Below the pieces are notes generated by a model, which saw nothing but the letters and a program-made list of their open reading frames with translations, did not search any database and was not told the origin of the DNA. 64,000 bases of DNA from an uncultured Gammaproteobacteria bacterium (GTDB taxonomy: Bacteria > Patescibacteriota > Microgenomatia > CAYQLK01): positions 595,396 to 659,395 of the forward strand of contig CAYOLO010000001.1 in NCBI GenBank assembly GCA_964404855.1. The letters are read 5' to 3'. The translations under genes were made by a program, and so were the position numbers. Of the stretch, positions 35,636 to 61,177 are shown one piece after another (the stretch's first letter is position 1; each line of letters begins with the position of its first letter).

Positions 35636-38600
35636 TTAGTTCAGAACGGAAACCGAGTCGAAAGTTGCAGTCGATATTTGTGAGCCGTTGTGTGAGGTGA
35701 CAAATAAACCAATATAAATATTTTCATCCAAACTCACCGTCTTTGCGTCATATAAAACCCAATCTATTCCCGTACTCGAGGTGTAAGCAGAAATTGTATT
35801 GCCGATTCTAACTAATTTAAGGTAAGTATCGGGGAAATTATAAGACAGGCCGTTAGTATTGCTGTTAAAACTATTTTGAAAAGACACACCATTATTTGGA
35901 GTTACCGAAAGCAGTGCATAATCGGATCCAGAAGTAAGCGAGTTTTTGATTATGACTCCTGCCTTGGCCCAATCATTAGTATTGGTTTGAGAGGTAATTC
36001 TGGTTGATATTTCACCATCACCAATAAGTGGCTGATAAACAAATTGGAATTGATCAGCATCAGCCCAAATATCATTACCTGCTCCATTTAATGTAAATAT
36101 TGAACTGTCAAAACCTGCACTTCCTCCAAGTGTTGGATTACCAATATCGGTATTTAGCCAAGGACTTGGCAATGAAGCTATTGGGGTGGTTGAGACAGAT
36201 ACATTATCGAAAGTAACGGTACTAATATTTGAACCGTTATGTGATGTTACAAATAGTCCAATTTTGACATCTTGGTTAAGAGTTACAGTTCTGGTGCCAA
36301 TTAATATCCAACTGACTCCATCAATTGAACTGTAACTCGCAATATTATTTCCATCTCTTTTGAGCTTAAGCCATGCGTTTGGGAATATATAACTAGGTCC
36401 TGCAACTTCACTGTTAAAACCATATTGCATAACGATGCCGTGCGCTGGAGTCACAGCCAATAAAGCATAGCCAGACAGGCTTTGAGTTGAATCTTTAATA
36501 ATTATCCCAGCTTTGGCCCAGTCATTAGTATTGGTCTGAGTTGTAACACGAGTAATAATTTCGCCATTTCCAGATAAGTCTTGACTAACAAAATACATTT
36601 GATCAGCGCTTCCCCATATATCATCCCCCGCGCCTTTAACGGTATAAGTCCCATTAGAATAAGTAGCTGAGCCTAGTAGTTTTGGATTTCCAATATCAGT
36701 ACCAGTAAAAGGTGCAGGCACACCGCTTGGAAGTCCAGTTGAAACTAAACTGACATTATCAAAAGTTGCGGTCGATATTTGTGAGCCGTTGTGTGAGGTG
36801 ACAAACATACCGACAGTAATTGGACCTGAAAAGTTAATAGTTGTTGTGCCAGCAGATGCCCAATTAACCCCATCAGATGAGAGAAAAGAAGTAATTATGT
36901 TGCCTTCTCTAACTAGCCTTACCCAAGCGTTTGGAGAATTGAAACTTCCCCACTCAGATCCTGTATTAAAGTTGGTTTGAAAGGTGTACCCGTGTTGAGG
37001 GGTAACTGCAAAAATTGCATAAGGTGATTGCGGGGTTATGTTTTGTTTAATCATTACCCCTGCTTTTGCCCACCCATTAGTATTAATTGTTTGCGAGGTA
37101 ATTCTGGCGGTTATCTGGCCATTACCGGTAATATTTTGATAAACATACTGAAACTGATCGGATTCTCCCCAAATGTCATCGCCTGCTCCACTTACTGTGA
37201 ATGTTCCTTGATTAAATGTGGAACTACCTACCGTAAGAGGATTACCAACATCAGTATTTTGCCAGAGTCCAGTTAAACCCTGTTTAACAGTTACATTGTC
37301 AAAAACCGAGGTATTAAGTTCATTATATTTATGAGAAGTGACAAACATGCCGATCGTCACATTTTCATTCATAACTATCTCAGTCGAACCAAGCATTACC
37401 CAGTTAATTCCATCTACTGAAGTGTAAGAGGTGAATGTATTGTTAAATCTGACTAACTTAAGCCAAGCGTTGGGGAAGGCGTAACTAGTGCTCCCGTTTT
37501 CTGTATTAAAGCTGTGTTGAAAAGTCACTCCGTTTGCTGGAGTTACAGCGACTAATGCATATTTTGAACCGGAAGTAGCTGTTTCCTTTATCATTATTCC
37601 TGATTTTGCCCAATCGTCTGTATATTCTTGTGAAGTAACACGAGTAATGATTTCCCCGTTACCTGAGAGTGGTTGATAGACATATTGGAATTCATCGGTT
37701 GGCCCCCAAATATCTCCACCAGCTCCATTAATTGAAAATGTTCCGCCAGTATATGAAGCATTGCCAGATATTAGCGGTGTTCCAATATCTATACTAATCC
37801 ATGGAGCAGGTGGAATTTGAAACTCGCTAAAGTTAGCAACGTAAGAAGTATTAACAGATGGAGTAGTAATTGTGTGAGATTGAGTTAGCCCATCAGACCA
37901 ATTAAGAAATTGATAATAATAGTTTAAATAATACTGAGGAGACGGAGCACTCAAAACTCGCTCAACACCAACCACAGCAGATTCTGTATGAACCCCAAAG
38001 TAAGGAATTCCGTCAATTGTATAAGAAACGTTTGGGAAATTTGCGTTAAAGGTTAATGTCACTAAATTAGGATAAATATGTGTTGATGTTTTAGTACTTA
38101 GACCTTGAGAATCTGTAGTTGTCAGTTGGATTTCATACCAAGTGTTAGCCAAGTTGTCTGCTGATTTAGGAATCGTAAATTGTCCTGATCTTTGACCTAA
38201 AACAGGATGCCAAAATGGGTGAATGTGATCACCGTGATGGAAAACAAAATTCCATGAGAAAGCAGAATCAGGAAGTTCTAGATCTTCTGGGTCGCTGCCT
38301 GCTGCAGAATAACTAATTATGTCCCCAGCGTTGTAGTGACTATCAGTAACGGGAGCAATTATAGTCCCTTGAGGCAAACTGTTTCCTACAGTAATTATCA
38401 CTGTTTCAATATCACTCTTGTCGCCATCGGAGATGGTAAGGCTTACATTATGTGTACCATTAACTGTAAAAATATGAGCTGGATTACTATCAGTTGAAGA
38501 ATTGCCGTCACCAAAATCCCAAAGATAACTTAATTCATCACCGTCTGGATCAGATGATTCCGAGGAATCAAAATTAACAGTCAAAGGACCGAGCCCAGCA

Positions 38601-39769
38601 ATAGTTGATGGATTAATATCTGCAATCGGAGATCTGTTACCGCCTGATGGTGCAATAACTGAAAGTGTACCTGGGTAAAATGTCAGTTTGTAGATATTGC
38701 CATCAGGACCTTGTGAAAGCTGAACCGTCGTGCCTGCTTCTGTGTCAAAAGAATTATCTGAAATAACTGACTCAAAATTTGAATCAAATTTTAGATATCT
38801 AATAAAACCCAAAGTATAGTCGGCGTAAAAAAAGGCATTTTGGTATTCACTTGGAAAAGTTGACCCTCCATAAACTAAAGTGGATGTAATCGATCCCGCC
38901 TTGGCTGGGGGATCGGTGTGAGGATAAACAAAAACAGGATTAACATATGGACAACTAGAACAAATTCCTTCAACATTCGGCCAACCATAGTTGCCCCCTT
39001 TGTTAATAATATTAAGCTCTTCCCAAGCGTCACCACCCACATCTCCAACAACGGCCCTACCGTCTGGAAGGAAAGTAAACCTAAAAGGATTCCTTAACCC
39101 GTAAGCCCAAATGGATTTAAGAGCATTTGGTGTTGAATAAAATGGATTATCGGTAGGGATTGTGCCGTCTTTGTTAATTCGGTGTATTTTGCCGTGCACG
39201 TTACTTAGGTTTTGTGAATTAAGATTGTGGGTATTCATACCCATAGCCCAATAAAGCTTGCCGTCGGGACCAAACCTAATTTCCCCTCCATGATGATAGA
39301 TATCACCTTGTTGGTTTGACTCGAGAAGAATTAGTTCAGAATCGGCACTAGCAGTGTCGCCTATTACGGTTATGCGAGAAAGTCTGTCAAAATTCTGTGC
39401 GGTGGTATATGCAACATATAAATATCCATTATTTGCAAAATCAGGATCTGGTTCAATTCCTAGCAATCCCCTTTCGTCAGCGTTGTCTGTTTGCAGAGTA
39501 ACGATTGTAATTACTGGTTCTGTCTGAATTTGGCCATTTGCAAAAATTTTAATTGCTCCGGTTTTTTCGGAAATAAAAATTCTTCCATCTGGCATAAATC
39601 GAAATGCAGTTGGTTCATTAAGATTAGAAACAAGCTCAGTAATATCGAACTCAGTTGGTGGCGCGGCATTAATTTGACCTGGAGTAATGATTAACGCCAC
39701 TAAAAAAACAACAACCGAGATTGTTGTAAAAGCAAAAAGATTTCTAAGTAAATTTTTCAGATATTTCAA
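35636..39769 (-). CDS. giant secreted multidomain protein: PQQ-dependent sugar dehydrogenase-like beta-propeller + PKD domain + 4 tandem ~184-aa jelly-roll-like repeats
   Basis: Signal peptide. GLLGIEPDPDFANNGYLYVAYT (soluble quinoprotein glucose/sorbosone dehydrogenase-like). PKD motif in ...LSYLWDFGDGNSS.... Four repeats carry GAGDDIWG...DQFQYVYQ...WAKAG(V/I)(M/I)IK...FVTSHNGS. Confidence 0.75.
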   Translation of the reverse strand: MKYLKNLLRNLFAFTTISVVVFLVALIITPGQINAAPPTEFDITELVSNLNEPTAFRFMPDGRIFISEKTGAIKIFANGQIQTEPVITIVTLQTDNADERGLLGIEPDPDFANNGYLYVAYTTAQNFDRLSRITVIGDTASADSELILLESNQQGDIYHHGGEIRFGPDGKLYWAMGMNTHNLNSQNLSNVHGKIHRINKDGTIPTDNPFYSTPNALKSIWAYGLRNPFRFTFLPDGRAVVGDVGGDAWEELNIINKGGNYGWPNVEGICSSCPYVNPVFVYPHTDPPAKAGSITSTLVYGGSTFPSEYQNAFFYADYTLGFIRYLKFDSNFESVISDNSFDTEAGTTVQLSQGPDGNIYKLTFYPGTLSVIAPSGGNRSPIADINPSTIAGLGPLTVNFDSSESSDPDGDELSYLWDFGDGNSSTDSNPAHIFTVNGTHNVSLTISDGDKSDIETVIITVGNSLPQGTIIAPVTDSHYNAGDIISYSAAGSDPEDLELPDSAFSWNFVFHHGDHIHPFWHPVLGQRSGQFTIPKSADNLANTWYEIQLTTTDSQGLSTKTSTHIYPNLVTLTFNANFPNVSYTIDGIPYFGVHTESAVVGVERVLSAPSPQYYLNYYYQFLNWSDGLTQSHTITTPSVNTSYVANFSEFQIPPAPWISIDIGTPLISGNASYTGGTFSINGAGGDIWGPTDEFQYVYQPLSGNGEIITRVTSQEYTDDWAKSGIMIKETATSGSKYALVAVTPANGVTFQHSFNTENGSTSYAFPNAWLKLVRFNNTFTSYTSVDGINWVMLGSTEIVMNENVTIGMFVTSHKYNELNTSVFDNVTVKQGLTGLWQNTDVGNPLTVGSSTFNQGTFTVSGAGDDIWGESDQFQYVYQNITGNGQITARITSQTINTNGWAKAGVMIKQNITPQSPYAIFAVTPQHGYTFQTNFNTGSEWGSFNSPNAWVRLVREGNIITSFLSSDGVNWASAGTTTINFSGPITVGMFVTSHNGSQISTATFDNVSLVSTGLPSGVPAPFTGTDIGNPKLLGSATYSNGTYTVKGAGDDIWGSADQMYFVSQDLSGNGEIITRVTTQTNTNDWAKAGIIIKDSTQSLSGYALLAVTPAHGIVMQYGFNSEVAGPSYIFPNAWLKLKRDGNNIASYSSIDGVSWILIGTRTVTLNQDVKIGLFVTSHNGSNISTVTFDNVSVSTTPIASLPSPWLNTDIGNPTLGGSAGFDSSIFTLNGAGNDIWADADQFQFVYQPLIGDGEISTRITSQTNTNDWAKAGVIIKNSLTSGSDYALLSVTPNNGVSFQNSFNSNTNGLSYNFPDTYLKLVRIGNTISAYTSSTGIDWVLYDAKTVSLDENIYIGLFVTSHNGSQISTATFDSVSVLN

Positions 39770-39966: not shown

Positions 39967-41148
39967 TCACCGGTGACACTGCGCGAGTGCAGCCTCAGCT
40001 GGTTTACCCATTGGACTAAACCCCAAATCAGGCTTGTTTGGGTCCGGCAGAGTGAGATCCACTTGCCACCAATACAAACCATTGATAAGGGGAACGAAGA
40101 CTTGGCAGGTCGCTTGATAATAACGAAGCTGGGCTTCGTAATCAGCCGGCGACTCAGATAGGTAGTTCCACGGCTTTTGGTACGCTCCCTGTCTGGGGAG
40201 AATTCCTATTTCCGTAAAAACTACAGTCTTGGGGTCATACCCCTTACTGGTAATGTCGGCTATCCAACGCTGCCAGCCAGCAACAAGCGAATCAACGCTT
40301 GCACCAGTTGGTACATCGAGCGGATAGTAGGCATCGATTGAAGGAAAGTTCAGATCGCTGGCAAAGCCGGGGGCTTTGACGTCCCAGTTAGCCGAATATG
40401 TGATTTGGCCATCGTACTGGGTACGAACTACAGCGATTAGCGCTTTCCAAAGAGCGACCTCTGGCTCAAGCGAGACAAACTCGGTGCCGACATTGAGAAC
40501 GGCAACTTTTTCTTCTTGAGCAAGTTTGGCGTAGCCAACCAGAAGTGAGGAGTAGCTGTTAAACCACTGTCCTTTATCTGTTGGACTGAGCTGGCCTCGC
40601 CATTTTCCGTCGGCAACCAAAGAGGACTCATCCAGAATCGGCCTAAGCATAACAGTGAAGTTACGCTTGTGTGCCTCTCGGATAAATATCCTGATGTTGT
40701 CGTCGGTCGGAGTCTTTTTGGGGTCCTTGTAAACCTCCACTGATTGCCAGTTCGACTGGAAAACAGGAAAGACTAGGCTGACAGAATTGATGTTCAGCTC
40801 TGCCAGCCTATTGAGAAGTTTGGGTGCCTTTTCAGCAAAATCTCCTCCGTCGCTGTACACCAAAACCGAAACGCCTGCATGATATGCCAGCGAATCAGTT
40901 CGAGGACTTACCACTCGGTTGATTTTGGGAGTTGGTGTAGCGGTCGGAGTCGATTCTTGAGTTGGCGCGACTGTCTCACTTTCGGAAATTGGAGTTCCGA
41001 TTGTGGTAGTAGCATCTGCAACTTGAGTGCTATCAGATTGCTCCTTAGCACCAGTTTGCCCACAAGACACGACACAGAAAACTGCTACAGCCAGGCTAAC
41101 GAATAGTCCCGCCGACAGCAGAAGGTCGTTTTGGCGCTTCGTGATCAA
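39967..41148 (-). CDS. lipoprotein, glycoside hydrolase-like TIM barrel (GH-A clan-like)
   Basis: Lipobox VVSCGQ. NVGTEF and VVFTEIGI candidate catalytic glutamates. GC-rich. Confidence 0.45.
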   Translation of the reverse strand: MITKRQNDLLLSAGLFVSLAVAVFCVVSCGQTGAKEQSDSTQVADATTTIGTPISESETVAPTQESTPTATPTPKINRVVSPRTDSLAYHAGVSVLVYSDGGDFAEKAPKLLNRLAELNINSVSLVFPVFQSNWQSVEVYKDPKKTPTDDNIRIFIREAHKRNFTVMLRPILDESSLVADGKWRGQLSPTDKGQWFNSYSSLLVGYAKLAQEEKVAVLNVGTEFVSLEPEVALWKALIAVVRTQYDGQITYSANWDVKAPGFASDLNFPSIDAYYPLDVPTGASVDSLVAGWQRWIADITSKGYDPKTVVFTEIGILPRQGAYQKPWNYLSESPADYEAQLRYYQATCQVFVPLINGLYWWQVDLTLPDPNKPDLGFSPMGKPAEAALAQCHR

Positions 41149-42613
41149 GATAGTCCTTCTCCGTAACCAACCCGTGGTTGGTCTTCTCCCAGAAGTGCGG
41201 ACGGGTAGCCAGCTGGTATAGGGCTTTCCAAGTCGCGAAACTTAGTATTGCCCAGTACAGCGGAGCAAGAACCATCCACTTGATGTTGCCATGCAATCCT
41301 CTGACCTTGCAGCCCATCATCACGTAAAGGACGAACAAAACGTTGCCCAACGCGATAGAAAAGATGCCGAGATAGAAGATCGGAAGCGGATACAACTCTT
41401 GGATGAAGGTTGCATTCGTCGCCTGATAGGCAAGCGTCATGAACCAGAAGATCGGATTGACCAGCAGTGTAAGAGGCGTGGTCATTACGATCACCATGAA
41501 GGAGACGAAGTTGACGAAACCCAGATCCCTGTAGAGGCTGACTGGGTTGCGTGAGTGGACGAGGAAAGTAATCATCCCACCCTTCTTCCAGCGCGAACGC
41601 TGGCGAACCAGGTTGCCGAGATGACTGTTGGCTTCTTCCCATGTCACACTGTCCATCAACTTGACCTGAAGACGGCGACGGGCGATACGAATGCCCATAT
41701 CAATATCTTCGGTCACGTTGTACATGTCCCAGCCTCCCAACCCAAGTAGGGTTTGGGTACGGAAGTGATTGGATGTGCCTCCCAAAGGGACAGGCATTCC
41801 TAATCGTCCGAGCCCTGGAAGGATCAGATTGAAGTAGGTCGCATACTCAGCGCTGAAGAACTTCGTAATCCAGTTGGTCTGGGGGTTGAAGTACTCCAGT
41901 TTGGCTTGAATACACGCTACTCGCCTACTGACTTTGCGGAAACAGACGACAGCTTTTTTGAGCTGATCTGGTTCTGGTCGGTCTTCGGCGTCGTAGATAA
42001 CGACAAATTCTCCTGTTGCCCTTTTCAGACCCTCATTACAAGCCTTGGGCTTGGTTTTGAGGTTAGAGTCAGGCATGATCAACACCTCAAAATGAGGCGG
42101 AAGCGCTTGCGAGTTAATCTCGCCAAGAGTCTGGGAGTCCTTTTCTTCCAGAAGCAGAATAATCTGCAGTCGGTTGGTAGGATAATCCAGATTGGTGAGA
42201 TTCACGATTAGCTTGGAAGCTATTTCGTGCTCGTCAAAGAGTGGAACGAGGATTGTGTACCTCGGCAACTCAGGTCCATTAGCAAGAGCATCTAGCTCTG
42301 CCATCGAAACCTTGATGAGTGCCGATTCCAGTGACTTGACTGTCAGCAGGCTCTTGAAGATGATGACGGTGACATAGATCAGAGTGATCGTCCCCGCGAA
42401 CCCCAAAAGAACCGGCATATAGCCAAACATGATGATGCTAGCAACCACACAAGCAACAATTGCGAGTGCGGTAATGCTTTGCGGTATGGTCAGAATAACC
42501 TCAGCGGTCTCTGACTTGGTGCGCGGAGCGAATTTATTTACTACCCCGCGTCCATTTTTGACATGTTCTGGTCCGATCAAAGCTTCCTCCTGTGGGAAGA
42601 AAGAACTGACCAA
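41096..42613 (-). CDS. membrane glycosyltransferase family 2, processive type (QxxRW)
   Basis: IYDAEDRPEPDQL, VRQRSRWKKG and multiple TM segments. GC-rich homolog of the GT2 at 1552..2799. Confidence 0.8.
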   Translation of the reverse strand: MVSSFFPQEEALIGPEHVKNGRGVVNKFAPRTKSETAEVILTIPQSITALAIVACVVASIIMFGYMPVLLGFAGTITLIYVTVIIFKSLLTVKSLESALIKVSMAELDALANGPELPRYTILVPLFDEHEIASKLIVNLTNLDYPTNRLQIILLLEEKDSQTLGEINSQALPPHFEVLIMPDSNLKTKPKACNEGLKRATGEFVVIYDAEDRPEPDQLKKAVVCFRKVSRRVACIQAKLEYFNPQTNWITKFFSAEYATYFNLILPGLGRLGMPVPLGGTSNHFRTQTLLGLGGWDMYNVTEDIDMGIRIARRRLQVKLMDSVTWEEANSHLGNLVRQRSRWKKGGMITFLVHSRNPVSLYRDLGFVNFVSFMVIVMTTPLTLLVNPIFWFMTLAYQATNATFIQELYPLPIFYLGIFSIALGNVLFVLYVMMGCKVRGLHGNIKWMVLAPLYWAILSFATWKALYQLATRPHFWEKTNHGLVTEKDYLDHEAPKRPSAVGGTIR

Positions 42614-42647
42614 GGGTGGAGGCGAAGATGTGACTCCTCACTCCCAC

Positions 42648-44348
42648 TCACTCGATCAATTCCTTACGCTGGTAAATCTGAATCTGCTCATTTTCGAATA
42701 CGAGCAGATAGTGTTGATCCAAAGCTTCAGTGTTATTGAGGCTCCTGTAAACCTTGTCCTGATTGGCTTGCGAGTTGCGCATCACAACCCAGTCGACGAA
42801 TTCGGCCGGGCTATTTAGCGCCGGCTCCCACATTCGGTAGCTTCCCTCATAGAGAATCTCACGAATAGGAAGTTTTGAGCTGACTTGCAAGTCTTCGTTG
42901 CCGTAACTTTCCATCAAGACAAGTCCTGATGTGTAGTTTTGGCTTAGCCAGTAGGCTGCATCACGCTGGGTAACTGAAAGTGGTTTTTCCATGTCCGCCT
43001 TGGGCTCGTTTAGGGTGATAATCTCACCCTGATAAGCCACAAATGCGGAAAAAGCACAAACACCACCTACAATTACCGCACGACTGATGACGAAGTTCTT
43101 GGTCAGGTAGCCTGCAAAGATCGCCAAAGGCAAAATCATAGGCAGAGAAAACCTGACGTTGTACAGATCCCCCGTAACCTGTTCAACATAAAGCGGCCTT
43201 TGACCGAAGTAAAGGGCCGCGACGAAGAACGGGAAAGGAAACAGCAGAGCGTAAACGGGAGCTTTGCGGATATTTTTAGAGTCGCTGACAATGAAGTAAG
43301 CGAGACCGATTAGTCCGAAAAACAGCGTAACGGCGCCTGCAGTTTCGTAGGTTGCGATTGAGTAGGTCTTGAGCGCGATCCAGAAGTTTCCAACGGCTTT
43401 TTCAGACTCTCCAACCCAAAGGGAAGGTTTGGCATACTCACCGTACTGGAAATACAAGGGGTTGCCAAAGATTTGATAGTTCCAGATCAGCCATCCGACA
43501 ATGCCGAGGCTGGCTAGAAATGTCAAAAAGAAGACTTCTCCCTCAACACGCTCTTTCGGCATTTTTTTGTTGATGCAGACTACGCCCCAAAGCGGAACGA
43601 AAAGGGCCAGAAGAATCCAGCCTTCGTACCGCGTCATGGTTGCGCAGATTAGCATCAGCGCGGTCGCCAACCCATAAACGATGTTGGAAACAGGCTCGTC
43701 GATTTTTTGCGTCCACCTTATGAAAAAGTAGACACTGCCCGACAAGAACATACACAAAGGCAGTTCTGTCATAGCTGTCGACTGCATATAACCAACGTTG
43801 GGGTTGGCCACGAAAACCAGACTAGCTACGACACCAGCCCAGCGTGAACCGGAGATTGTTTCGGTTATCTTGTACAGAAAAACGGAAGTCCCCACAAAAC
43901 AGAGCATCGAAGGAATACTTCCTGCAATACCTGTCTTGTAGAGATAATCATTCCAGATCAGTGGCTGCATGAGCAGATGCGGTAGCGGTGGCCAAACTCC
44001 GCCGAGCTGAGCCAATCCCGGTGTGGGGCTGTCAACAACTCTTTTGGCGATGAGTAGATGCGATTGTGCGTCTTTGTAGACCAGAACTAGGTCGTTGGTG
44101 TAGTAGTAGACGAAGTTGACTACAGACACCAGAAGTGTGATGGTGATGATGACCAAAAGCAGGTTGTCCCGCTTGTGGCTATCTTCGCTAGTAACGACTG
44201 CCGGACGCCTTACGGCTACGGTCTGGCGAACGTTCGTTTTGGTTGCAACTTGCTTGGTTGCGACTGACTGAGACCGAACTTCGGACGTAACCAGTTTGTA
44301 ACCGGTTCGCCCGCAGTAATAAGCCACAGCAAAAATTGAGCGCAGCAT
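42648..44348 (-). CDS. GT-C superfamily polytopic membrane glycosyltransferase (ArnT/PMT-like)
   Basis: 566 aa with more than 10 TM segments. Conserved acidic motif in the first periplasmic loop (YKDAQSHLLIAKR). GC-rich. Confidence 0.55.
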   Translation of the reverse strand: MLRSIFAVAYYCGRTGYKLVTSEVRSQSVATKQVATKTNVRQTVAVRRPAVVTSEDSHKRDNLLLVIITITLLVSVVNFVYYYTNDLVLVYKDAQSHLLIAKRVVDSPTPGLAQLGGVWPPLPHLLMQPLIWNDYLYKTGIAGSIPSMLCFVGTSVFLYKITETISGSRWAGVVASLVFVANPNVGYMQSTAMTELPLCMFLSGSVYFFIRWTQKIDEPVSNIVYGLATALMLICATMTRYEGWILLALFVPLWGVVCINKKMPKERVEGEVFFLTFLASLGIVGWLIWNYQIFGNPLYFQYGEYAKPSLWVGESEKAVGNFWIALKTYSIATYETAGAVTLFFGLIGLAYFIVSDSKNIRKAPVYALLFPFPFFVAALYFGQRPLYVEQVTGDLYNVRFSLPMILPLAIFAGYLTKNFVISRAVIVGGVCAFSAFVAYQGEIITLNEPKADMEKPLSVTQRDAAYWLSQNYTSGLVLMESYGNEDLQVSSKLPIREILYEGSYRMWEPALNSPAEFVDWVVMRNSQANQDKVYRSLNNTEALDQHYLLVFENEQIQIYQRKELIE

Positions 44349-44861
44349 TTAGGCTTTACCCTCCGAAGAAGTCTTCTGATGGATGACGACAGGGACTTGG
44401 GGTTCGTGGTGCTTTATTGCGAACACGAACCTGTGACTGGCGATGTACGACAGCACAAGTCCAGCGACCGTGCCGAAAACAAGTGACGGGAGGTGGTTGA
44501 AAACCAGAATCGACAAACCAAACACAAAAGTGTTGGTAATCAAGCTGGTAAGAGCCATGATATTGAACTTCACGAGTGAAGCAATCCCACCTAGGAAACC
44601 ATGAGCTGGTTTCTTTCTGTCACTCCATGTGAAGTGAAAACTCAGGAGGTAGTTGGTTTGGGTTGAGACAATGAAGGCAAAGGCGTTAACCGCCGTTATC
44701 TGCCACCAAAGTTCAAACCAAGTGGTTGAGAGAATACCGAAGAAGAGCGCGTACTGGAGGCTCGTGCAAACGAGGCCGACAGTCAAAAACTTGATGACGC
44801 GCTGGAGGTTAATCCGCTCGCCAAAGGTCTGAAGGACAGGACCGGATACGATTGGAACCAC
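44349..44861 (-). CDS. GtrA-family polysaccharide synthesis membrane protein
   Basis: 4 TM segments; KFLTVGLVCTSLQYALFFGIL is typical of GtrA. Start codon uncertain. Confidence 0.6.
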   Translation of the reverse strand: MVPIVSGPVLQTFGERINLQRVIKFLTVGLVCTSLQYALFFGILSTTWFELWWQITAVNAFAFIVSTQTNYLLSFHFTWSDRKKPAHGFLGGIASLVKFNIMALTSLITNTFVFGLSILVFNHLPSLVFGTVAGLVLSYIASHRFVFAIKHHEPQVPVVIHQKTSSEGKA

Positions 44862-45109
44862 GGAAGAAACTCTCCATTTCTCGAATACGTTTTTAAGGTA
44901 CTCCGCTCTGGTGTTGCGACGCCCTATAGTTCTGTCGTCAAGATGACGGAAAAACTTTTGGGATTACGCAATTAATGTTTTCATAAGCTCGATTATTTAG
45001 TCCGATAACACTGATGTGTTTTACGGTCTATTTCGACCTATAGTTGCGGAGCTTGGATTATAGGTAAAAACTATCAATAGGTCAAGCGCGAAGTTTATAA
45101 ATGAAGAGA

Positions 45110-45760
45110 TTAATTATTAGCAAAAACGAAGGCGGCGTAGAATCCGGCAATTCCTCCGCAGCCGATTTGCCAGCTCGGGTTCTGTAAAGCTTCCCTATGT
45201 CCTGTTAGTGATCTATCCCAACCAAACTCAACGATATGTACTCCAGATAGAGCTTGACCGCCGTACAAAACTTCGCCGAGGTGGATGAATTCGTTCTGAC
45301 TTTCGCCGTATTTATTAAAACCTGCATGATTGTCTAATCCGCCATTGGCAACTTGTTCCTCTGCGCGTTTTTGAGCAATATCACAGATTGTGGAATTAGA
45401 AGTCAAAGTATTAAGCCCGTGGGCTTTGCGGTAGTCATTGACGGCTGCAAATAACTCATCGCGCGTGGACATATTTTCGGAAATTGGAACAGAAAATTCG
45501 GTTAGATGCTCATCGACTTTGCGAACTGACCAATCTGGAGTTGGAGTGGGAAGCTTTTTATTTTGAGTTTGAAGATTGTTTTTGATTGAGCCTGTTTCAA
45601 CAGCACTTGTTTCGATTTTGGCTTCAGATGTGGCAGTATTAGTCCTTAATAGACTACGGCCAATTTTTTCAATATTTGTAAGCTGAGAAGGCAGATTGAC
45701 AGCGTAGGTAAGAAAAACAATACCAACAAAAACAGTGATAATTACCAATATTTTGACCAT
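45110..45760 (-). CDS. CAP/SCP/PR-1-like domain protein with N-terminal signal anchor
   Basis: ORF trimmed to the MVKILVII start at 45760. C-terminal GHREALQNPSWQIGCG matches the CAP-domain GHYTQ...GC signature. Confidence 0.6.
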   Translation of the reverse strand: MVKILVIITVFVGIVFLTYAVNLPSQLTNIEKIGRSLLRTNTATSEAKIETSAVETGSIKNNLQTQNKKLPTPTPDWSVRKVDEHLTEFSVPISENMSTRDELFAAVNDYRKAHGLNTLTSNSTICDIAQKRAEEQVANGGLDNHAGFNKYGESQNEFIHLGEVLYGGQALSGVHIVEFGWDRSLTGHREALQNPSWQIGCGGIAGFYAAFVFANN

Positions 45761-45800
45761 TTGGCTAAATATCCTATCATAGGATAAGGATTTTTTAATT

Positions 45801-46835
45801 ATGAAGGTATTAATTACAGGTATTTCGGGGTTTCTGGGTATTAATTTAACGAGATATTTCTTATCTAAAAATGTTGAGGTTAGAGGTATTGACTTGGTTG
45901 ATTTTGAGTATCCAGAAAAAAATAAGATTGAAATGATTGTGGGCGATATTCGCAATAAGTCTAATGTCAAAAAAGCTATTTTAGATGTGGATTATGTGGT
46001 CCATTGTGCCGCAGCACTACCTTTGTACCCTGATGATGATATTTTTTCGACCGATATATTAGGTACAAAAATACTACTTGAAGAGTCGTGGAAACAAAAT
46101 GTGAAAAGATTTGTTTATATTTCATCGACTGCTGTTTACGGGATTCCTGACCATCACCCAATCTCAGAATCTGACAAATTAATCGGAGTTGGTGCGTATG
46201 GAGTTAGTAAAGTAAAGGCGGAAAAAATTTGTGAAAACTATCGTGAAAAAGGAATGATATTACCAATACTTAGACCAAAGAGTTTTGTCGGCCCTGAACG
46301 TTTAGGAGTGTTTGCCCTTTTTTATGACTGGGCAAAATCTGGCAAAAATTTCCCGATGATTGGCAGTGGTAAAAACAAGTATCAGTTGCTTGATGTTGAA
46401 GATTTGTGTCAAGCAATTTGGCTTAGTTTGACTAAGCCAAAAGCAGTGGTTAATGACACATTTAACATTGGTGCTAAAGAATTTTTGAGTATGCAAGAAG
46501 ATTATCAGGCGGTATTAACTGAAGCTGGATTTGGTAAAAAAATCATTCCACTGCCTGCAAAACCGACCATATTGGCGCTGATTCTTTTAGAAAAACTAAA
46601 ACTATCCCCTCTTTATAGGTGGGTCTATGAAACAGCTGGCAAAGATAGTTTTGTCTCAATCGAAAAAGCGGAGAAAAAGCTGGGATTTAAACCAAAATTT
46701 AGTAACAGTGAGGCACTAGTTAGAAATTATAGGTGGTTTTTGAAAAACTATGACTATTTTAATGGCTTATCTGGTGTTACTCACCGAGTGCCATGGAAAC
46801 AGGGAGCTTTAAGTCTAGCGAAGATATTTTTCTGA
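45801..46835 (+). CDS. NAD-dependent epimerase/dehydratase (SDR family)
   Basis: ITGISGFLG Rossmann motif and YxxxK region; 344 aa. Confidence 0.85.
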   Translation: MKVLITGISGFLGINLTRYFLSKNVEVRGIDLVDFEYPEKNKIEMIVGDIRNKSNVKKAILDVDYVVHCAAALPLYPDDDIFSTDILGTKILLEESWKQNVKRFVYISSTAVYGIPDHHPISESDKLIGVGAYGVSKVKAEKICENYREKGMILPILRPKSFVGPERLGVFALFYDWAKSGKNFPMIGSGKNKYQLLDVEDLCQAIWLSLTKPKAVVNDTFNIGAKEFLSMQEDYQAVLTEAGFGKKIIPLPAKPTILALILLEKLKLSPLYRWVYETAGKDSFVSIEKAEKKLGFKPKFSNSEALVRNYRWFLKNYDYFNGLSGVTHRVPWKQGALSLAKIFF

Positions 46836-46842
46836 AGAAAAT

Positions 46843-46866
46843 GCCGCCCTTTTTACGGGGCGGCAA
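46843..46866 (-). terminator. GC-rich hairpin, likely terminator for the minus-strand small-gene pair (weak for the + strand)
   Basis: tgccgccc-loop-ggggcggca stem with a U-rich tract on the minus-strand side. Confidence 0.5.
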
Positions 46867-47116
46867 CTGATGAACTCATGCTTGTCAGGCTCATCCTTGC
46901 GGGACAAACTGAGGCGGCGCGAGCAGGTAGTTCGGCACATGGAGCGTGAAGGTTCTGGACGTCCAGACACACTTGTCGCCGTCGTGACCTTGAGAAAATG
47001 CGCTTCGGGCGATCCGAACCCGCTCCTCCGCAATCACCCGTCGATGAGTGTTGCCGTTGGGAACAGCACCACCAACTAAATCGACTTCGCCGCAGATGCA
47101 GGCGAAAGACGTAAAC

Positions 47117-47332
47117 TCAATGTCCACTTCTGATACTCCCTTCCGAAAGCAACCTGTCGTAAGCCTCCGTGACCATTTCGCGAGTGATGGCAGGGTTTTC
47201 GATGTAAGTGTTGCCAAAGACAAAACTTATCATCTGTGCCCTGCGGTCAGCGGGAGTCACTATGACTCCTCGAGTTTTGACCAAAAGATCGTCGAGGTCT
47301 GGTGTGTTGGAACGCTGTGATGTCATGCACAC
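47117..47332 (-). CDS. small hypothetical protein (GC-rich island)
   Basis: 71 aa, 8 bp downstream of the preceding ORF. An overlapping alternative-frame ORF at 46891..47223 suggests a possible frameshift or degeneration. Confidence 0.3.
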   Translation of the reverse strand: MCMTSQRSNTPDLDDLLVKTRGVIVTPADRRAQMISFVFGNTYIENPAITREMVTEAYDRLLSEGSIRSGH

Positions 47333-47340
47333 TTTACTTC

Positions 47341-47667
47341 TTATTCACCTCCAGTAAGATGTTGGATGTTCGGAAGCGCTTCCGCGAGTGAATTCCAGCC
47401 TCTTGGACGCAGAACTTCGATGCTGCGGAGTTCGGCGACTTCGAGCATGAACCCGATATGGTGGATGACTTCGTCTCTGGCTGCACCATTGAAGATGTGC
47501 AGATAAAGTGAAGCCGCGAAGGCTTCTCTGTTGGTGAGGGCTTCGGCTTCGTCGGCGCTGTAGATGAAATTCACAGCTGTTTCGGCAAGTTTCTGCCCAT
47601 AGCGTTTAGCTAGAACATCGAGAGCTTGTTGGGCTTGTGGGGACAGGACTGCTACTTGAGCACTCAT
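47341..47667 (-). CDS. hypothetical protein (GC-rich island)
   Basis: 108 aa with no known domain. Confidence 0.4.
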   Translation of the reverse strand: MSAQVAVLSPQAQQALDVLAKRYGQKLAETAVNFIYSADEAEALTNREAFAASLYLHIFNGAARDEVIHHIGFMLEVAELRSIEVLRPRGWNSLAEALPNIQHLTGGE

Positions 47668-47730
47668 CTTTACTTAGATAAACCGCCTTTTTTAATGAGC
47701 TAACAGATAGTCTACTCTAATAGGATTTTT

Positions 47731-47767
47731 TTGCAAGAAAAAGGCGGCCATATGGTTAATGGCCGCC
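47731..47767 (-). terminator. rho-independent terminator for the gene at 47814..48845
   Basis: ggcggccat-atggtta-atggccgcc perfect 9-bp stem, with a T-run on the minus strand. Confidence 0.8.
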
Positions 47768-47813
47768 AAAGAGGACTAGTTGACGGAATGTTCTTTAGCT
47801 CGCGAAAACAGGC

Positions 47814-48845
47814 TTAGAACCTGCGGCTCGAACCTTTAGATTTGCCGCCTGGGCCGGATCGGAAACCTCTAGTGTCCGTAAACGACTTCATTTTGCCGTT
47901 ACGTCCGGTCGTAAAGGTACCGATGCCCGGAACGTGCTGTGATGTGCCGGTAAGGTTGCCTCGGTTGTCGTGGTGGAAGGTCAGGCCGAGGCCTGGCACC
48001 TGCTGGGAAGAACCTCGGGTATTACCCCGACGGTCTTGGTTGAAGCTCAGGCCTGGTAGGCCCGAACGGGTCGAGGAACCGGTATGGTTGCCGCGGCTGT
48101 CGCTGCGGAATGTCAGGCCGAGTCCGTCGTTGCGAGGGCCTTGATAGCCACCGCCACGAGGTGCTCGTGGTCTTGGATGCTCGCGGCAATAGAAATCCCT
48201 GCTCGCATCGGGTTCAAACGGCAGATTCATCACGGAGTGCTGACCACCGACGCAGTAGGCAGCGTACTTCGGTTGAGGATGTTCCTTGCAGTGGAACGGT
48301 CGGTCGCCATTTGGCTGGAATGGAACTTTGACTGTGTGTAACCCGCCGGTGCAGAATGCGTCGAACATCGGCTTGGGGTGATCGCGACAGTAGAAGTCAC
48401 GCTTGGGGTCTGGAGCTCGGTTGAGCCCCTGAACTGTGTGACTACCGCCGACGCAGTACCCAGAGAATTTTGGTTGCGGATGGTCGCGACAGAAGAAGTC
48501 GCGCTTGGGGTCGGGTTGGAATGGAATCTTGGTTTGATGGTCCCCGCCAACACAAAACGCATCGTACATGACACGAGGCGCTGATTTGTGGTCTCGGCAG
48601 TTGAACGGTCTGCTACTGTCCGGTTCGAATGGGAGTTCGACCGTGTGCCCGCCGTTTTTGCAGTGGGCGGTGTACATTTCACGCTGAGGGCGTGTTTGCT
48701 GACTGCCACCGCCTTTGCGGGCAGCACGGCAATTTGGGCACCGCGTGGGTTGTGAGAATCCTTTCTCAGCGAAGAATGTCTGTTCCCGTTCGGAGAAGTC
48801 GAACCTCTGCGAACAGTCTTTGCAGGTGAGGGTTTGGCTGGGCAC
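47814..48845 (-). CDS. zinc-ribbon + tandem Cys/His repeat + RGG/Gly-rich tail protein (putative nucleic-acid binding)
   Basis: N-terminal CKDC...CPNC ribbon. Five ~34-aa repeats F/YCxGGxH(T/S)V...PFxPDxxRDFxC(R/K)(D/E)HPxP. C-terminal GLGLTF(R/H)xDxRGNxTG repeats. Confidence 0.6.
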   Translation of the reverse strand: MPSQTLTCKDCSQRFDFSEREQTFFAEKGFSQPTRCPNCRAARKGGGSQQTRPQREMYTAHCKNGGHTVELPFEPDSSRPFNCRDHKSAPRVMYDAFCVGGDHQTKIPFQPDPKRDFFCRDHPQPKFSGYCVGGSHTVQGLNRAPDPKRDFYCRDHPKPMFDAFCTGGLHTVKVPFQPNGDRPFHCKEHPQPKYAAYCVGGQHSVMNLPFEPDASRDFYCREHPRPRAPRGGGYQGPRNDGLGLTFRSDSRGNHTGSSTRSGLPGLSFNQDRRGNTRGSSQQVPGLGLTFHHDNRGNLTGTSQHVPGIGTFTTGRNGKMKSFTDTRGFRSGPGGKSKGSSRRF

Positions 48846-48997
48846 GAAGAAGAATACCTTTCTCTAACCGTGATAAGCAGGAACTGGTTTGAATCGTACA
48901 ACTAGTTAATGTGCTTAGTCCTTTCTGTTGAGGGTTTGACACTCTCAAGTTGGAAATTGGAGTAATTATATCAAAAAATAACAACTATGGGATTGAA

Positions 48998-49035
48998 TAA
49001 GAAAAAGGAGAAGCCAAATTAATAGTCTTCTCCTT
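48998..49035 (-). terminator. rho-independent terminator for the gene at 49060..49518
   Basis: ggagaag...cttctcc stem followed on the minus strand by TTTTTCTTATT. Confidence 0.75.
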
Positions 49036-49059
49036 ATGTTTGTCTGGTCGAATGCCTTT

Positions 49060-49518
49060 TTAGGTGGCGGTAGTGATCCGCTTGGTGCGCATTTTCGCTT
49101 CTTCAGCGAAACTGCTCTTGTGGCTGTTGACGACAAGGGCGACATCAAAGTTCTTGATGGGGGTTTCGCACCGAGTGAAACGCCACGCGTCGTAAATCAT
49201 CGTGTAGATGGTCCTAATGTGAGGGCCGTCGGAGTCCTGACGAGCGATCAACTTGAGCTCGTCGACCGTAAGGTTAGCGACGACGCTTCGGCCACATTCG
49301 AGCCTGGCTTCGCCAGCCCTGCAGATTACGAGGCGGTCAGTTGGCCCGTTGGGGTTGAACCGAACGATTTCGAGCCTGCCGTGGGCGCGGTGAGCGATGT
49401 TCGCCAGCTTCTGGGTGAAATAAGCCAGCGAGTTTTCGTCGTTTTTGGGGATACGACGAATCTCGGCCGTAAGGCGCCTGACGGAACGCGGCTTCCTATG
49501 AGCTTGCCTGTGCGACAT
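49060..49518 (-). CDS. hypothetical basic protein (GC-rich island)
   Basis: 152 aa, Arg-rich N-terminus. GGAG Shine-Dalgarno 8 nt upstream of the ATG. Confidence 0.5.
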   Translation of the reverse strand: MSHRQAHRKPRSVRRLTAEIRRIPKNDENSLAYFTQKLANIAHRAHGRLEIVRFNPNGPTDRLVICRAGEARLECGRSVVANLTVDELKLIARQDSDGPHIRTIYTMIYDAWRFTRCETPIKNFDVALVVNSHKSSFAEEAKMRTKRITTAT

Positions 49519-49698
49519 TACTACTCCAGATTAAAAGTTCCTTGCCTCAATCGTTCCCACCCACAGGCTGTGGACAGGTCTTTTTGACACAAGAGCGGTA
49601 TTCTAGCTCAATTATTGTAAAAATACAACAATATAAACTAAAATAATTCAATCCTGTAGTAAACTGTATTTTAGTTAAATTGATATAATAATTGCATA

Positions 49699-52722: not shown

Positions 52723-53340
52723 TTAGGCTTGAGAGCCAAGCGACTCGGCTACGAGTTTTGCAAACTCGTCGGCCATTGTATCGCGGTTGTGCCAACCGAC
52801 CTTGAACATCACGACCTCATCGCGATTAGCAAGCTGTTGACCAGCTTCCATAATCATTCTGGCCATGTCTAGGCGCTTGGCAAGCTCTTCAGCTTCCATT
52901 GCCTGTCTCGCGGTCATGTTGTGAGTCAGATACTCTGGCTCTGCTTCGAGCACGAACCAGCGCACAAGACTGACATCTTTGGCCTCTGGCCTTTCAGCAA
53001 GCTCCTGAGGAACTGCTGCCTGATAAACGGGATTAAGCTCGATGATGGCGCCAGTTGCGCCGCCAGCGGCTAAGGCTTGGATGTCCCCAATGCGGTAAGC
53101 ATAGTGGAATCCCTTGTTTTCGTGATGACCGACCAACTCACCACCGTTAAGATGGTTTTCGTAGTCAGCACCAGAGATACAGATTTTGGTTTCGATGCCT
53201 ACGCCCCTATCAGGACGGGTCGTAACCATCTGAGGATTGCTCAGCCCGAGCCGTTCGATGACGACTTGTGTGAGGTAATCCTTACCAGCTCCGGATGGTC
53301 CGGAGATCCCAATTACTGGAATTTGTTTTGTTTTATCCAT
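52723..53340 (-). CDS. gmk: guanylate kinase family protein (GC-elevated)
   Basis: P-loop GISGPSGAGKD, TTRPDR and downstream Gmk-like regions. Noticeably higher GC than the flanks. Confidence 0.65.
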   Translation of the reverse strand: MDKTKQIPVIGISGPSGAGKDYLTQVVIERLGLSNPQMVTTRPDRGVGIETKICISGADYENHLNGGELVGHHENKGFHYAYRIGDIQALAAGGATGAIIELNPVYQAAVPQELAERPEAKDVSLVRWFVLEAEPEYLTHNMTARQAMEAEELAKRLDMARMIMEAGQQLANRDEVVMFKVGWHNRDTMADEFAKLVAESLGSQA

Positions 53341-59512: not shown

Positions 59513-59830
59513 ATGAAAAAAAATCTTGTGGAAAACACACCTAGACTTACAACTAATATAGTTAGCAACTTAGGCTTGGCAGAAATGGAAAGTATTGTTA
59601 TAGAAAATCAAAAGGTAAACTTAACGACTACCAGTTGTAATTTTGGTGGTAAAAGATATTGGTTTACTTGTCCTAGGTGTACTTCCAGAGTTGGTACGCT
59701 TTTTTGTCCCTATGGAGAAGATTTATACGAGTGTAGGGTGTGTAAGGGTCTTAGGTATGAACTATCTATAAATCGGAGGTCAAAAAATGAACACTTTATT
59801 AAACTTTTGCACCAAATTAAGTCTCTATGA
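59513..59830 (+). CDS. small 4-Cys zinc-ribbon protein
   Basis: CNFGGKRYWFTCPRC ... CPYGEDLYECRVC pairs of CxxC. Confidence 0.45.
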   Translation: MKKNLVENTPRLTTNIVSNLGLAEMESIVIENQKVNLTTTSCNFGGKRYWFTCPRCTSRVGTLFCPYGEDLYECRVCKGLRYELSINRRSKNEHFIKLLHQIKSL

Positions 59831-61177
59831 GTTGCTAGGTGGTGGCGGGTTAGTTTGAGGTGGCTCTACTAGCCATCCATTCTGTTTTAAGAAAGCCTTT
59901 AATAAGTCGTCACTTACATCCTCATACCCCAAGCTCCAGTAAATCTCTTTGATAAAACTAATAGTGTGGTCTTGTAGGGATTGGTCGTTATGGAGCAACG
60001 AGGTTTCTATTTCTACTTTCCATAGGTATTTGTTTTTTAATGGTACTTCTTCATCCTCATGCCAGAACATCCCACCTCTATATCCGTTAGGGACGATACG
60101 TTTTAATTGCGCTCCATTTATTCCATCCAATTCTACGTATCCATAAATTGCACCTTGGTAGTTAAATTTTGTGTAGAAATTCTTTAGAGCTTTAAGAAAC
60201 ATAACGTAATAAACCGCTAGCGTCTCAATATAGATATGTTTTCTTCTCTCATCTACACGCAATACGTCATCTGCTAAAAAGAGTAATCCAGTAGAAAATA
60301 CTTGTTGGCAACTCAACCCACCGTCAAAAGAGTGCTGGAAGCGGAATACCCCCTCTTGGATAGGCTTTACGTTTAAGTCTGGAAAATCTGTACTCCCTTT
60401 CCTATACCTAATTTGCTCCATGTTTGTTTTAATATCTAACGGGGTACAAAGTGCTTTTTGAGGATAATAGGGCTGGGCTAATATGGTCAACATTGAAGTC
60501 TCACTTCCGAGGGTCTTTTGGTAGTATTGTGAGTGATATGCTGGTGGTTGTTGTCCTTGTGCCTTAGCATTTTCAATCCGTTCTTGAAATTTTGCTTTTT
60601 CTACAGCGATAAGTTTTAGACGCTTTCTTTCTTCTGCTTTTAGCCCATCGTCGTAGTTTTCTTTGGCTATCCTTATATAATTCTCTCTAGCCAACCGTGC
60701 TTTATCTTTTTTACCAACCAATAGCTCAACTGCTTCTGGACTGGCAAGGCTAATTGGGTCTGTAATGTTTCCACTACGAACATAGATATTAGCCTCATTA
60801 TGGACATAATACGGCGTCCTATCTCCCTCATAAATCCTTACTAATATAAAAACTTTTCCATTTACTTCATTGGTTACATGCAAGTCGTAGAGCGGTCTTT
60901 GGTCTACGGAAGTAGCGTATTGATGTATTTTATCCGCTAGCTTGCTATCAAAAATAATGCCGTCAAAAACAACTGGTTTACCAGATTTGTCTTCTTCTAC
61001 GCCTATTATGATTACGCCACCTCTGCTATTGGAGAATGAGGCAAAATGCTTGGCGAGACCTTTACTCGGAAGTTCTTTTTTGTAATCTAACTGAAATCCC
61101 TCAATGTAACCCTGTTTACAGAACTCAACAACCTCTTCAAATGTGAAAGTGTCTATAGGTTTGCTTAGTATTTGCAT
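59825..61177 (-). CDS. AlbA_2 (Schlafen-like) domain protein
   Basis: N-terminal FEEVVEF...E...FASFSNSRGGVIIIGVEEDKSG matches the AlbA_2 putative DNA-binding domain. C-terminal region unknown. Confidence 0.6.
   Translation of the reverse strand: MQILSKPIDTFTFEEVVEFCKQGYIEGFQLDYKKELPSKGLAKHFASFSNSRGGVIIIGVEEDKSGKPVVFDGIIFDSKLADKIHQYATSVDQRPLYDLHVTNEVNGKVFILVRIYEGDRTPYYVHNEANIYVRSGNITDPISLASPEAVELLVGKKDKARLARENYIRIAKENYDDGLKAEERKRLKLIAVEKAKFQERIENAKAQGQQPPAYHSQYYQKTLGSETSMLTILAQPYYPQKALCTPLDIKTNMEQIRYRKGSTDFPDLNVKPIQEGVFRFQHSFDGGLSCQQVFSTGLLFLADDVLRVDERRKHIYIETLAVYYVMFLKALKNFYTKFNYQGAIYGYVELDGINGAQLKRIVPNGYRGGMFWHEDEEVPLKNKYLWKVEIETSLLHNDQSLQDHTISFIKEIYWSLGYEDVSDDLLKAFLKQNGWLVEPPQTNPPPPSNS

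Follow-up and report, generated by a model that had tools for sequence, protein, structure and literature searches.

Four genes in a 64-kb window of a contig from an uncultured bacterium (CAYOLO010000001.1, positions 595,396 to 659,395; "the window" is this whole stretch, and all coordinates below refer to it) constitute a reduced member of a conserved, uncharacterised gene cassette that joins a GT-C-fold glycosyltransferase to a synthase-type enzyme of glycosyltransferase family 2 (GT2). The window version has no GtrB-type GT2 and bears a gene of glycoside hydrolase family 113 (GH113). We interpret the four genes as an acquired operon for a decorated, synthase-dependent surface glycan, a reading to which we give about an even chance of being right. 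The open reading frames (ORFs) follow one another head to tail at 39967-44861 on the minus strand, and they and the flanking signals are as follows.

45057-45085, minus strand: promoter-like site, TTGACC, 17-nt spacer and TATAAT, upstream of gtrA in host-like AT-rich DNA
44349-44861, minus strand: gtrA, 170 amino acids (aa), GtrA-family small membrane protein, presumed flippase for a polyprenyl-phosphate-sugar
42648-44348, minus strand: GT-C-fold polytopic glycosyltransferase, 566 aa
41096-42613, minus strand: QxxRW GT2 of synthase type, "XagB-like", membrane-embedded, 505 aa
39967-41148, minus strand: putative GH113 lipoprotein (clan GH-A, beta-mannanase family), 393 aa
39888-39929, minus strand: intrinsic terminator, a 16-bp interrupted hairpin followed by UUUUU, just past the GH113 stop codon

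The four ORFs, which the original prediction had described as co-directional and tightly packed, were confirmed on the minus strand. The gtrA stop codon directly abuts the GT-C start codon, 34 nt separate the GT-C and GT2 genes on the same strand, and the GH113 ORF overlaps the 3' end of the GT2 gene by 53 nt. The promoter-like site upstream of gtrA, recognised by its consensus match alone, agrees with the consensus at 11 of 12 positions and is the best in the region, where sigma-70-like sites are no more numerous than expected from shuffled sequence. At the other end, the terminator hairpin has a folding energy of -26.3 kcal/mol (z = -7.7), and none of 200 shuffles was equally stable. Since the genes abut or overlap between a promoter-like site and a terminator, they look like one transcription unit. 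The module had earlier been drawn as 41096-44861, a span that leaves out the GH113 gene of the same operon and has to be extended to 39967.

A conserved cassette of GT-C and QxxRW GT2

A profile of the GT-C protein retrieved 266 relatives among GTDB species genomes, the best 80 of which were kept as loci; retrieval was by GT-C alone. An exhaustive search with the GT-C profile returned 1,129 clusters (50% identity) at E <= 1e-30. The 80 loci belong to Actinomycetota (Herbidospora, Glycomyces, Actinoplanes, Paractinoplanes, Actinosynnema, Nonomuraea, Frankia, Mycobacterium and Mycolicibacterium), Chloroflexota, Saccharibacteria and other Patescibacteria. A QxxRW-type GT2 adjoins the GT-C gene in all 79 assessable loci, and the QxxRW motif itself is present in 78 of these 79 GT2s, the exception being a truncated ORF. 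A GtrB-type domain lies directly upstream in 69 of the 80 loci and within the same ORF as GT-C in 49; fusion to a GtrB-type GT2 (PF00535) is very common among GT-C homologues, and GtrA is at times part of the fusion too. GtrA was found near GT-C in at least 49 of the 80.

Several relatives unite these parts in a single polypeptide. Data showed fusions of QxxRW GT2, GT-C and GH113 (P0447), of GtrB, QxxRW GT2 and GT-C (P0439, P0483), of GT-C with GH5 (P0471, P0491) or with another GH-A-type domain (P0452), of GT2 with GH113 (P0056), and of three MshEN domains, which are receptors of cyclic di-GMP (c-di-GMP), with GT2 (P0045). The domain order of the fusions fits the predicted topology, with the hydrolase placed after the extracytoplasmic C-terminus of GT-C. 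Given the invariable adjacency and the single-polypeptide fusions, GT-C and GT2 are unlikely to be functionally unrelated. One further candidate for a cassette part, a GDSL lipase, was found near two cassettes and was set aside as not recurrent.

These counts modify two expectations of the original prediction. It had regarded a QxxRW GT2 combined with GtrA and GT-C as unusual; the pairing is in fact the rule, and what is unusual here is the missing GtrB part. It had also expected a GtrB-type GT2 in such a setting, which holds for 69 of the 80 loci, where the domain is usually fused to GT-C, but the QxxRW GT2 is additional to GtrB and does not replace it. The window version is therefore atypical in two respects, the presence of GH113 and the absence of GtrB from the operon and the 64-kb window: a GtrB- or Dpm1-type GT2 was found neither in the operon nor among all window ORFs of at least 150 aa. 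The same lack characterises the window clade, L012, L085, L087 and the Chloroflexota loci L025, L027, L031, L035 and L063, which cluster with the window in neighbour-joining trees. In these trees the window clade groups with L087, an unclassified Logan contig, and L088, a metagenome-assembled genome (MAG) of Patescibacteria, within a GtrB-less sub-clade that also includes Chloroflexota.

One might suppose that in this sub-clade the QxxRW GT2 has taken over from GtrB and makes the lipid-linked sugar or oligosaccharide that GT-C transfers. The absence of a GtrB-type GT2 from operon and window would fit this, as would the existence of the GtrB-less sub-clade itself (the window clade, L012, L025, L027, L031, L035, L063 and L085). 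The two GT2 types, however, occur together in 69 of the 80 loci, and even in one polypeptide (P0439, P0483), so that in the family at large the QxxRW GT2 is no substitute for GtrB. Moreover, a GtrB-type gene that is unlinked or displaced occurs nearby in L088 and L010, which suggests that the donor-making GtrB-type enzyme is encoded elsewhere. We consider the replacement improbable and retain the reading in which the GT2 would build the glycan itself.

The island GT2 resembles polysaccharide synthases

The GT2 of the operon (hereafter the island GT2) matches Pfam Glyco_trans_2_3 (3.2e-19) and Glyco_tranf_2_3 (1.1e-18) and contains the motifs VIYDAEDRP, VPLGGTSNHF, GGWDMYNVTED and QRSRW. All 42 homologues preserve DAED (residues 208-211), TED (301-303, including E302-D303) and QRSRW (338-342), together with a C-terminal W-E-x-T-x-H signature (WEKTNH; W475, E476, T478 and H480). 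The AlphaFold model (predicted local distance difference test score, pLDDT, 86.4) has two N-terminal and three to four C-terminal transmembrane helices, and its top Foldseek matches are BcsA, the Chlorella virus and Xenopus hyaluronan synthases, PcManGT, and Chs1 and other chitin synthases. Superposition on BcsA, CvHAS and XlHAS1 gives E values of 1e-13 to 1e-15 and template-modelling (TM) scores of 0.5-0.58 with the transmembrane region included, although PcManGT, which is not known to polymerise, matches too. Neither a PilZ nor an MshEN domain was found in the island GT2 with Pfam, a feature that does not define the fold class. Many close homologues bear the name "glycosyltransferase XagB", assigned by the Joint Genome Institute. 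By analogy with the MshEN fusion P0045 and with xagB, the family would act elsewhere as an exopolysaccharide synthase, and motifs and model together make the island GT2 a candidate processive synthase.

A different product is conceivable. The GT2 could make a glycolipid or lipid-linked primer, such as a hexosyl-diacylglycerol, that GT-C extends on the outer face from polyprenyl-phosphate sugars to give a membrane-anchored lipoglycan comparable with actinobacterial lipomannan. This agrees with the concentration of the cassette in Actinomycetota, Chloroflexota and Patescibacteria and with the best PDB sequence match of the GT2, PcManGT, a minimal mannosyltransferase of cellulose-synthase-like type that is not known to polymerise. 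A xagB-like gene has been automatically annotated as a beta-monoglucosyldiacylglycerol synthase (PMC4643136), and mycobacterial lipomannan and arabinan are built by GT-C enzymes, two of which, AftA and AftB, are among the fold matches of the window GT-C. Set against this are the endo-acting clan GH-A hydrolases fused to GT2 (P0056), to GT-C (P0471, P0491) or to both (P0447), which favour a beta-linked polymer as substrate, the MshEN-GT2 fusions typical of c-di-GMP-gated exopolysaccharide synthases, and the fit of the GT2 model to BcsA and hyaluronan synthases over the transmembrane region too. We think a lipoglycan product unlikely and continue with the island GT2 as a putative polymer synthase.

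A second QxxRW-type GT2 is encoded outside the operon.

1552-2799, minus strand: native AT-rich QRTRW GT2, 415 aa

Its motifs are GIFDAEDEP, VPLGGNTVFF, GGWNETMLTED and QRTRW, so that the DAED, PLGG, GGW, TED and QR(S/T)RW elements pointed out earlier are indeed present in both proteins. Their homology was borne out by pairwise comparison, which gave 30% identity over the 239 residues of the catalytic core (E = 2e-37). The further proposal, that the cell holds a native and a xenologous copy of one processive beta-glycan synthase, was not sustained. Over nearly its full length the native GT2 is 24-30% identical to members of the island-GT2 family, it scores 174 bits against the profile of that family where the island GT2 scores 760, and the gene contexts differ, with a sortase and a surface protein beside the native enzyme and GT-C and GH113 beside the island one. 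Sequence comparison thus places the native GT2 as a distant paralogue within one superfamily, not as a second copy of the island enzyme. The native cluster (430-3944) includes, besides the GT2, a sortase (2802-3335), a putative surface protein whose C-terminus carries a membrane anchor (3357-3944) and, divergently oriented beside the GT2 gene, a 341-aa secreted protein without a family match (430-1455). The last was considered as a GH113-like partner of the native GT2 and rejected: it has no similarity to GH113 and no match in Pfam, NCBIfam or PDB.

GtrA and the GT-C transferase

The gtrA product matches Pfam GtrA_DPMS_TM (PF04138) over residues 24-147 (6.4e-13). The GT-C product has weak matches to PMT (6e-07) and PMT_2 (2.2e-06), both above gathering scores, and no other Pfam match. 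Its AlphaFold model (pLDDT 85.6, predicted TM score 0.84) shows a disordered N-terminal stretch of about 60 aa, about 11-13 transmembrane helices and a C-terminal extracytoplasmic alpha/beta domain. Foldseek against PDB returned GT-C enzymes exclusively: STT3/OST, DPY19, Pmt4, ArnT (TM 0.56-0.59), ALG9/12, AftA/B and PglB. A sequence search of PDB returned no match, and there is hence no detectable sequence similarity to any solved GT-C. With Pfam matches for all four products and these exclusive fold matches, the family assignments proposed earlier for GtrA, GT-C, GT2 and the GH-like protein hold.

In an alignment of 21 homologues Asp93 is invariant, as are H97, R103, E195 and R240-Y241-E242. 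Asp93 comes just after the first transmembrane helix, in the first outer loop, where the model has a helix spanning residues 92-106. Its position and conservation make D93 a candidate catalytic residue. The DE motif of PMT-type enzymes is not evident in loop 1, where KDA surrounds the invariant D93.

These features bear on the possibility that GtrA and GT-C form a PMT-like system for O-glycosylation of Ser/Thr-rich regions of exported proteins, among them the linker of the GH113 protein and the GSDH protein described below, with GT2 and GH113 as a separate, co-travelling exopolysaccharide system. PMT and PMT_2 are the only Pfam matches of GT-C, Pmt4 is among its fold matches, a linker rich in Thr, Pro and Ser is present in the putative GH113 lipoprotein, the cassette often has a large secreted protein beside it (46 of the 80 loci), and streptococcal systems of GtrB and GT-C glycosylate Ser/Thr-rich disordered regions (PMC12041528). 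That no DE motif is evident speaks against it, and an adjacency of GT-C and QxxRW GT2 in 79 of 79 loci, together with their union in single polypeptides, is hard to explain for unrelated pathways. We judge protein O-glycosylation to be quite unlikely and treat GT-C as a probable partner of the GT2.

A putative GH113 lipoprotein and a lectin-rich neighbour

The GH113 product matches Pfam PF22612 (7.7e-44) over profile positions 10-276 of 289 and the mannanase AaManA (4cd6) at 2.8e-23. E151 and E231 of AaManA, which we take to be the clan GH-A catalytic pair (acid/base and nucleophile Glu, respectively), align with the Glu residues of NVGTEF and VFTEIG in the window protein. Beta-1,4-mannanase activity is predicted from the family, and the enzyme's substrate in nature may be the polymer that the operon itself would make. 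The N-terminus consists of a hydrophobic segment, a VVSC lipobox and then a Thr/Pro/Ser-rich linker; by this pattern, the protein is a putative lipoprotein.

Directly downstream of the operon terminator lies a further gene, which belongs to a separate transcription unit.

35636-39769, minus strand: GSDH-PKD-DUF1349 protein, 1377 aa, secreted or membrane-anchored

Pfam identifies in it a GSDH domain (the beta-propeller of pyrroloquinoline quinone (PQQ)-type sugar dehydrogenases), a PKD domain and four lectin-like DUF1349 repeats, all four of which are visible in the translation, and aldose sugar dehydrogenases are matched in PDB at 1e-30. A homologue occurs within 10 kb of the cassette in 46 of the 80 loci, and in other phyla the protein usually accompanies the cassette. 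In the window, the gene is host-like along its whole length, with a GC content at third codon positions (GC3) of 0.28. Because it is host-like although it abuts the GC-rich operon, the data suggest either that the four upstream genes replaced an older set beside a resident GSDH partner or that the parts arrived at different times.

The operon is foreign in composition and maintained by selection

A GC-rich island matches the extent of the four genes exactly. Its GC content is about 50%, compared with about 38% outside, and changes sharply near 39950 and 44950. GC3 is 0.50-0.61 in the operon (0.61 in gtrA, 0.50 in the GH113 gene) and 0.26-0.36 in 40 other genes; GC content at second positions (GC2) is ordinary. 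This excess at third positions with ordinary GC2 upholds the earlier claim of a foreign composition, and horizontal acquisition of the operon is well supported.

The alternative, that the island is not foreign and owes its GC richness to amino-acid composition or to selection on membrane-protein genes, is very improbable. In its favour, cassettes exceed their flanks in GC in other low-GC hosts also (L087, 0.47 against 0.42; L088, 0.43 against 0.39; L012, 0.50 against 0.42), and the island has been inherited vertically within its clade, with a synonymous divergence (dS) like that of flanking genes. Yet the excess sits at third codon positions and not at second ones, the island edges coincide with the operon boundaries, and the nearest relatives outside the clade are merely 45-56% identical and come from other lineages. 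The difference of 4-8 GC points between cassette and flanks in L087, L088 and L012 is an observation in its own right and may reflect repeated transfer from donors of higher GC, or else a constraint on composition.

The same operon occupies the same place in L007, at 92-97% protein identity, and in L001, L002 and L008, at about 76%. Compared with L007, the ratio of non-synonymous to synonymous divergence (dN/dS) is 0.09-0.12 over all four genes (0.086 in gtrA), which are thus under purifying selection, and operon dS is similar to flanking-gene dS. We conclude from the shared locus, the low dN/dS and the flank-like dS that the operon is old and in use within this clade. The retention of GtrA under such selection implies that a lipid-linked donor is still used.

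Neither the neighbour-joining trees nor the closest matches allow a donor lineage to be named. A scan of the island borders for direct and inverted repeats, integrase and tRNA genes brought up nothing beyond short repeats at chance level, with the closest tRNA genes at a distance of more than 30 kb. An exact-sequence look-up of the window GT-C gave no match. A search of metagenome contigs for an empty site, through the epimerase gene that flanks the island, found synteny confined to the same clade, and the more distant matches lie in unrelated contexts, mostly of high GC.

Window UvrB is 97% identical to a protein of Candidatus Curtissbacteria, and its remoter matches are from Curtissbacteria or Patescibacteria, so that by sequence identity the host is a member of Candidatus Curtissbacteria, a lineage of the candidate phyla radiation (CPR) with a reduced genome. 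Two MAG records, L007 (CAYQLK010000004.1) and L008 (CAYUKQ010000005.1), share synteny with the window, their proteins being 76-97% identical, but bear the title "uncultured Gammaproteobacteria bacterium"; as UvrB of the window points to Curtissbacteria, these titles look like mislabels or placeholders.

A proposed mechanism and its weighing

Beyond the observed families, folds, motifs, operon signals, composition, selection, cassette conservation and fusions, we infer the following scheme in its every chemical step, including processivity, the sugars, the acceptor of GT-C and the parts played by GH113 and the GSDH protein. The QxxRW GT2, working at the cytoplasmic face with a nucleotide sugar as substrate, would polymerise a beta-linked glycan and thread the chain through its own transmembrane channel, like BcsA and hyaluronan synthase. 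GtrA would flip a polyprenyl-phosphate-sugar made by an enzyme encoded outside the operon, and GT-C would transfer the sugar from this donor, at the outer face, to the emerging chain or its anchor. The membrane-tethered GH113 protein may cleave, trim or release the backbone, possibly of beta-manno type, as BcsZ, PssZ and CcsZ act in their systems, and binding or modification of the product would probably fall to the lectin-rich GSDH-PKD-DUF1349 surface protein.

A more ambitious version seems to us somewhat doubtful, though worth stating. Here GT-C and GT2 would form one bipartite machine, in which GT-C glycosylates, anchors or ligates the synthase-made polymer as it leaves the membrane and a retaining GH-A hydrolase possibly releases or transglycosylates it. 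This would be a hybrid of synthase-dependent and polyprenol-dependent routes, spread over Actinomycetota, Chloroflexota and Patescibacteria and captured here by a reduced CPR genome.

Several points weigh against the interpretation as a decorated, synthase-dependent glycan. QxxRW GT2s are not all processive, an example being the cyanobacterial monoglucosyl-diacylglycerol synthase, and PcManGT is among the best matches of the island GT2 in both structure and sequence. The supply of donor is assumed, because a GtrB-type synthase was found neither in the operon nor in the window. The acceptor of GT-C could be a protein or a lipid instead of the GT2 product. GH113 occurs near the cassette in 5 of the 80 loci, which makes it an accessory and not a core part. 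Finally, the trees used here are neighbour-joining trees without support values.

With a GT-C so firmly tied to a synthase-type GT2, the cassette points to a so far undescribed way of making surface glycans that are branched or anchored, and the bipartite machine, if true, would add a new way for bacteria to assemble glycans. The cassette is carried by bacteria of monoderm type and by ultrasmall CPR cells, which attach to hosts through their surfaces, and a reduced Curtissbacteria genome has kept this acquired envelope-glycan operon under purifying selection. Since carriers are available in culture (Actinoplanes, Glycomyces, Herbidospora, Mycolicibacterium and Sinomonas), the idea is directly testable.

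Other features of the window

The NAD-dependent epimerase gene flanking the island (45801-46835) has host-like GC. Its nearest homologues outside the clade are 54-68% identical and lie mostly on high-GC contigs (about 0.53-0.70; a few 0.39-0.44) in unrelated contexts, and it may be an older, ameliorated acquisition. The epimerase ORF overlaps a CAP-domain ORF (45110-45970) by 170 nt, for which reason the CAP start is probably further downstream.

In a second GC-rich block (46750-49600; GC 0.50-0.62, GC3 up to 0.72) lie a gene for a 343-aa protein that carries treble-clef zinc fingers as repeats (47814-48845; zf_Tbcl_2, 6e-22) and some small ORFs that match no family; the block is present in L007, the 92% relative, and partial in L001 and L008. 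An isolated GC-rich gene (52723-53340; GC 0.52, GC3 0.53) has no family match and is 74-96% identical in syntenic relatives. A 693-aa protein (56612-58693) combines a cytochrome d1 heme domain (4.7e-68) with a cytochrome b5-like domain, which is unexpected in a fermentative CPR genome. A defence-like pair (59825-63461) consists of a protein with GmrSD_N and Schlafen AlbA_2 domains (61206-63461; PADLOC HEC-05, 4.8e-34) and an AlbA_2 protein (59825-61177).

Comparison with known systems

In the literature we found no paper describing a cassette of GT-C and synthase-type GT2. Synthase-dependent polysaccharides are modified outside the membrane by acetylation, deacetylation, epimerisation and addition of phosphoethanolamine; glycosylation by a GT-C enzyme was not found among their known modifications in the literature.

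The BcsA/BcsZ cellulose system, Listeria PssC/PssZ and a predicted GT2 and GH113 system of C. difficile share with the window a membrane GT2 with D, DxD, TED and QxxRW motifs and a fold like that of BcsA and hyaluronan synthases. BcsA/BcsZ-type systems, like the window, pair the GT2 with a dedicated extracytoplasmic endo-hydrolase, and relatives of the window GT2 are fused to c-di-GMP receptor domains. In contrast to BcsA-type systems, the window GT2 lacks a PilZ or MshEN domain, partners like BcsB or BcsC are absent, and the hydrolase belongs to GH113 instead of GH8. The cassette synthase is, moreover, invariably coupled to a GT-C, for which we found no description in any characterised synthase system. 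In the CslA-GlxA-CslZ system of Streptomyces, a cellulose-synthase-like GT2 acts with an extracellular redox enzyme and a glycoside hydrolase, which would resemble the set of GT2, GSDH protein and GH113; that system differs in having a copper radical oxidase and not a PQQ-type propeller, a GH6 hydrolase, and no GT-C or GtrA. The C. difficile operon is predicted to make an exopolysaccharide rich in N-acetylmannosamine and of manno-type (PMC7710045).

Three-component Gtr-type systems, such as GtrA/GtrB/GtrC of O-antigen, CsbB/GtcA/YfhO of lipoteichoic acid, and GacI/GacL and SccN/SccP of rhamnose polysaccharides, have GtrA-family and GT-C-fold proteins, as does the window. They and most of the homologous cassettes carry a GtrB-type GT2, fused or adjacent in the cassettes, whereas the window operon does not. 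The acceptors differ as well: the presumed acceptor of the window GT-C is a synthase-made polymer, and that of the Gtr-type enzymes is a Wzy- or ABC-pathway glycan or a teichoic acid. The Actinoplanes gsf cluster, described as "GtrA-dependent" (PMC13390465), was considered as an equivalent and discarded because it has a different gene set.

In the Xanthomonas xagABCD operon, XagB resembles the island GT2 by the name assigned to homologues of the latter, and production of an uncharacterised biofilm exopolysaccharide depends on xagB (PMC3609779). Its partners differ from those in the window, being XagA, XagC and XagD or, in iron oxidisers, a BcsB-like gene (PMC4643136); no GT-C, GtrA or GH113 is reported from that operon. 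The closest published analogue is a mobile c-di-GMP module of Streptococcus (Liu et al. 2020, as summarised in PMC10333796), which comprises a diguanylate cyclase together with a Dpm1-GtrA hybrid, a protein of cellulose-synthase-like type and another with 16 transmembrane segments. As that summary presents it, the module has a diguanylate cyclase that the window does not, and neither GH113 nor a GSDH protein is named in it. By its description alone, it nevertheless brings together a GtrB/GtrA-type part, a cellulose-synthase-like GT2 and a large polytopic protein, which is the combination closest to the cassette described here.

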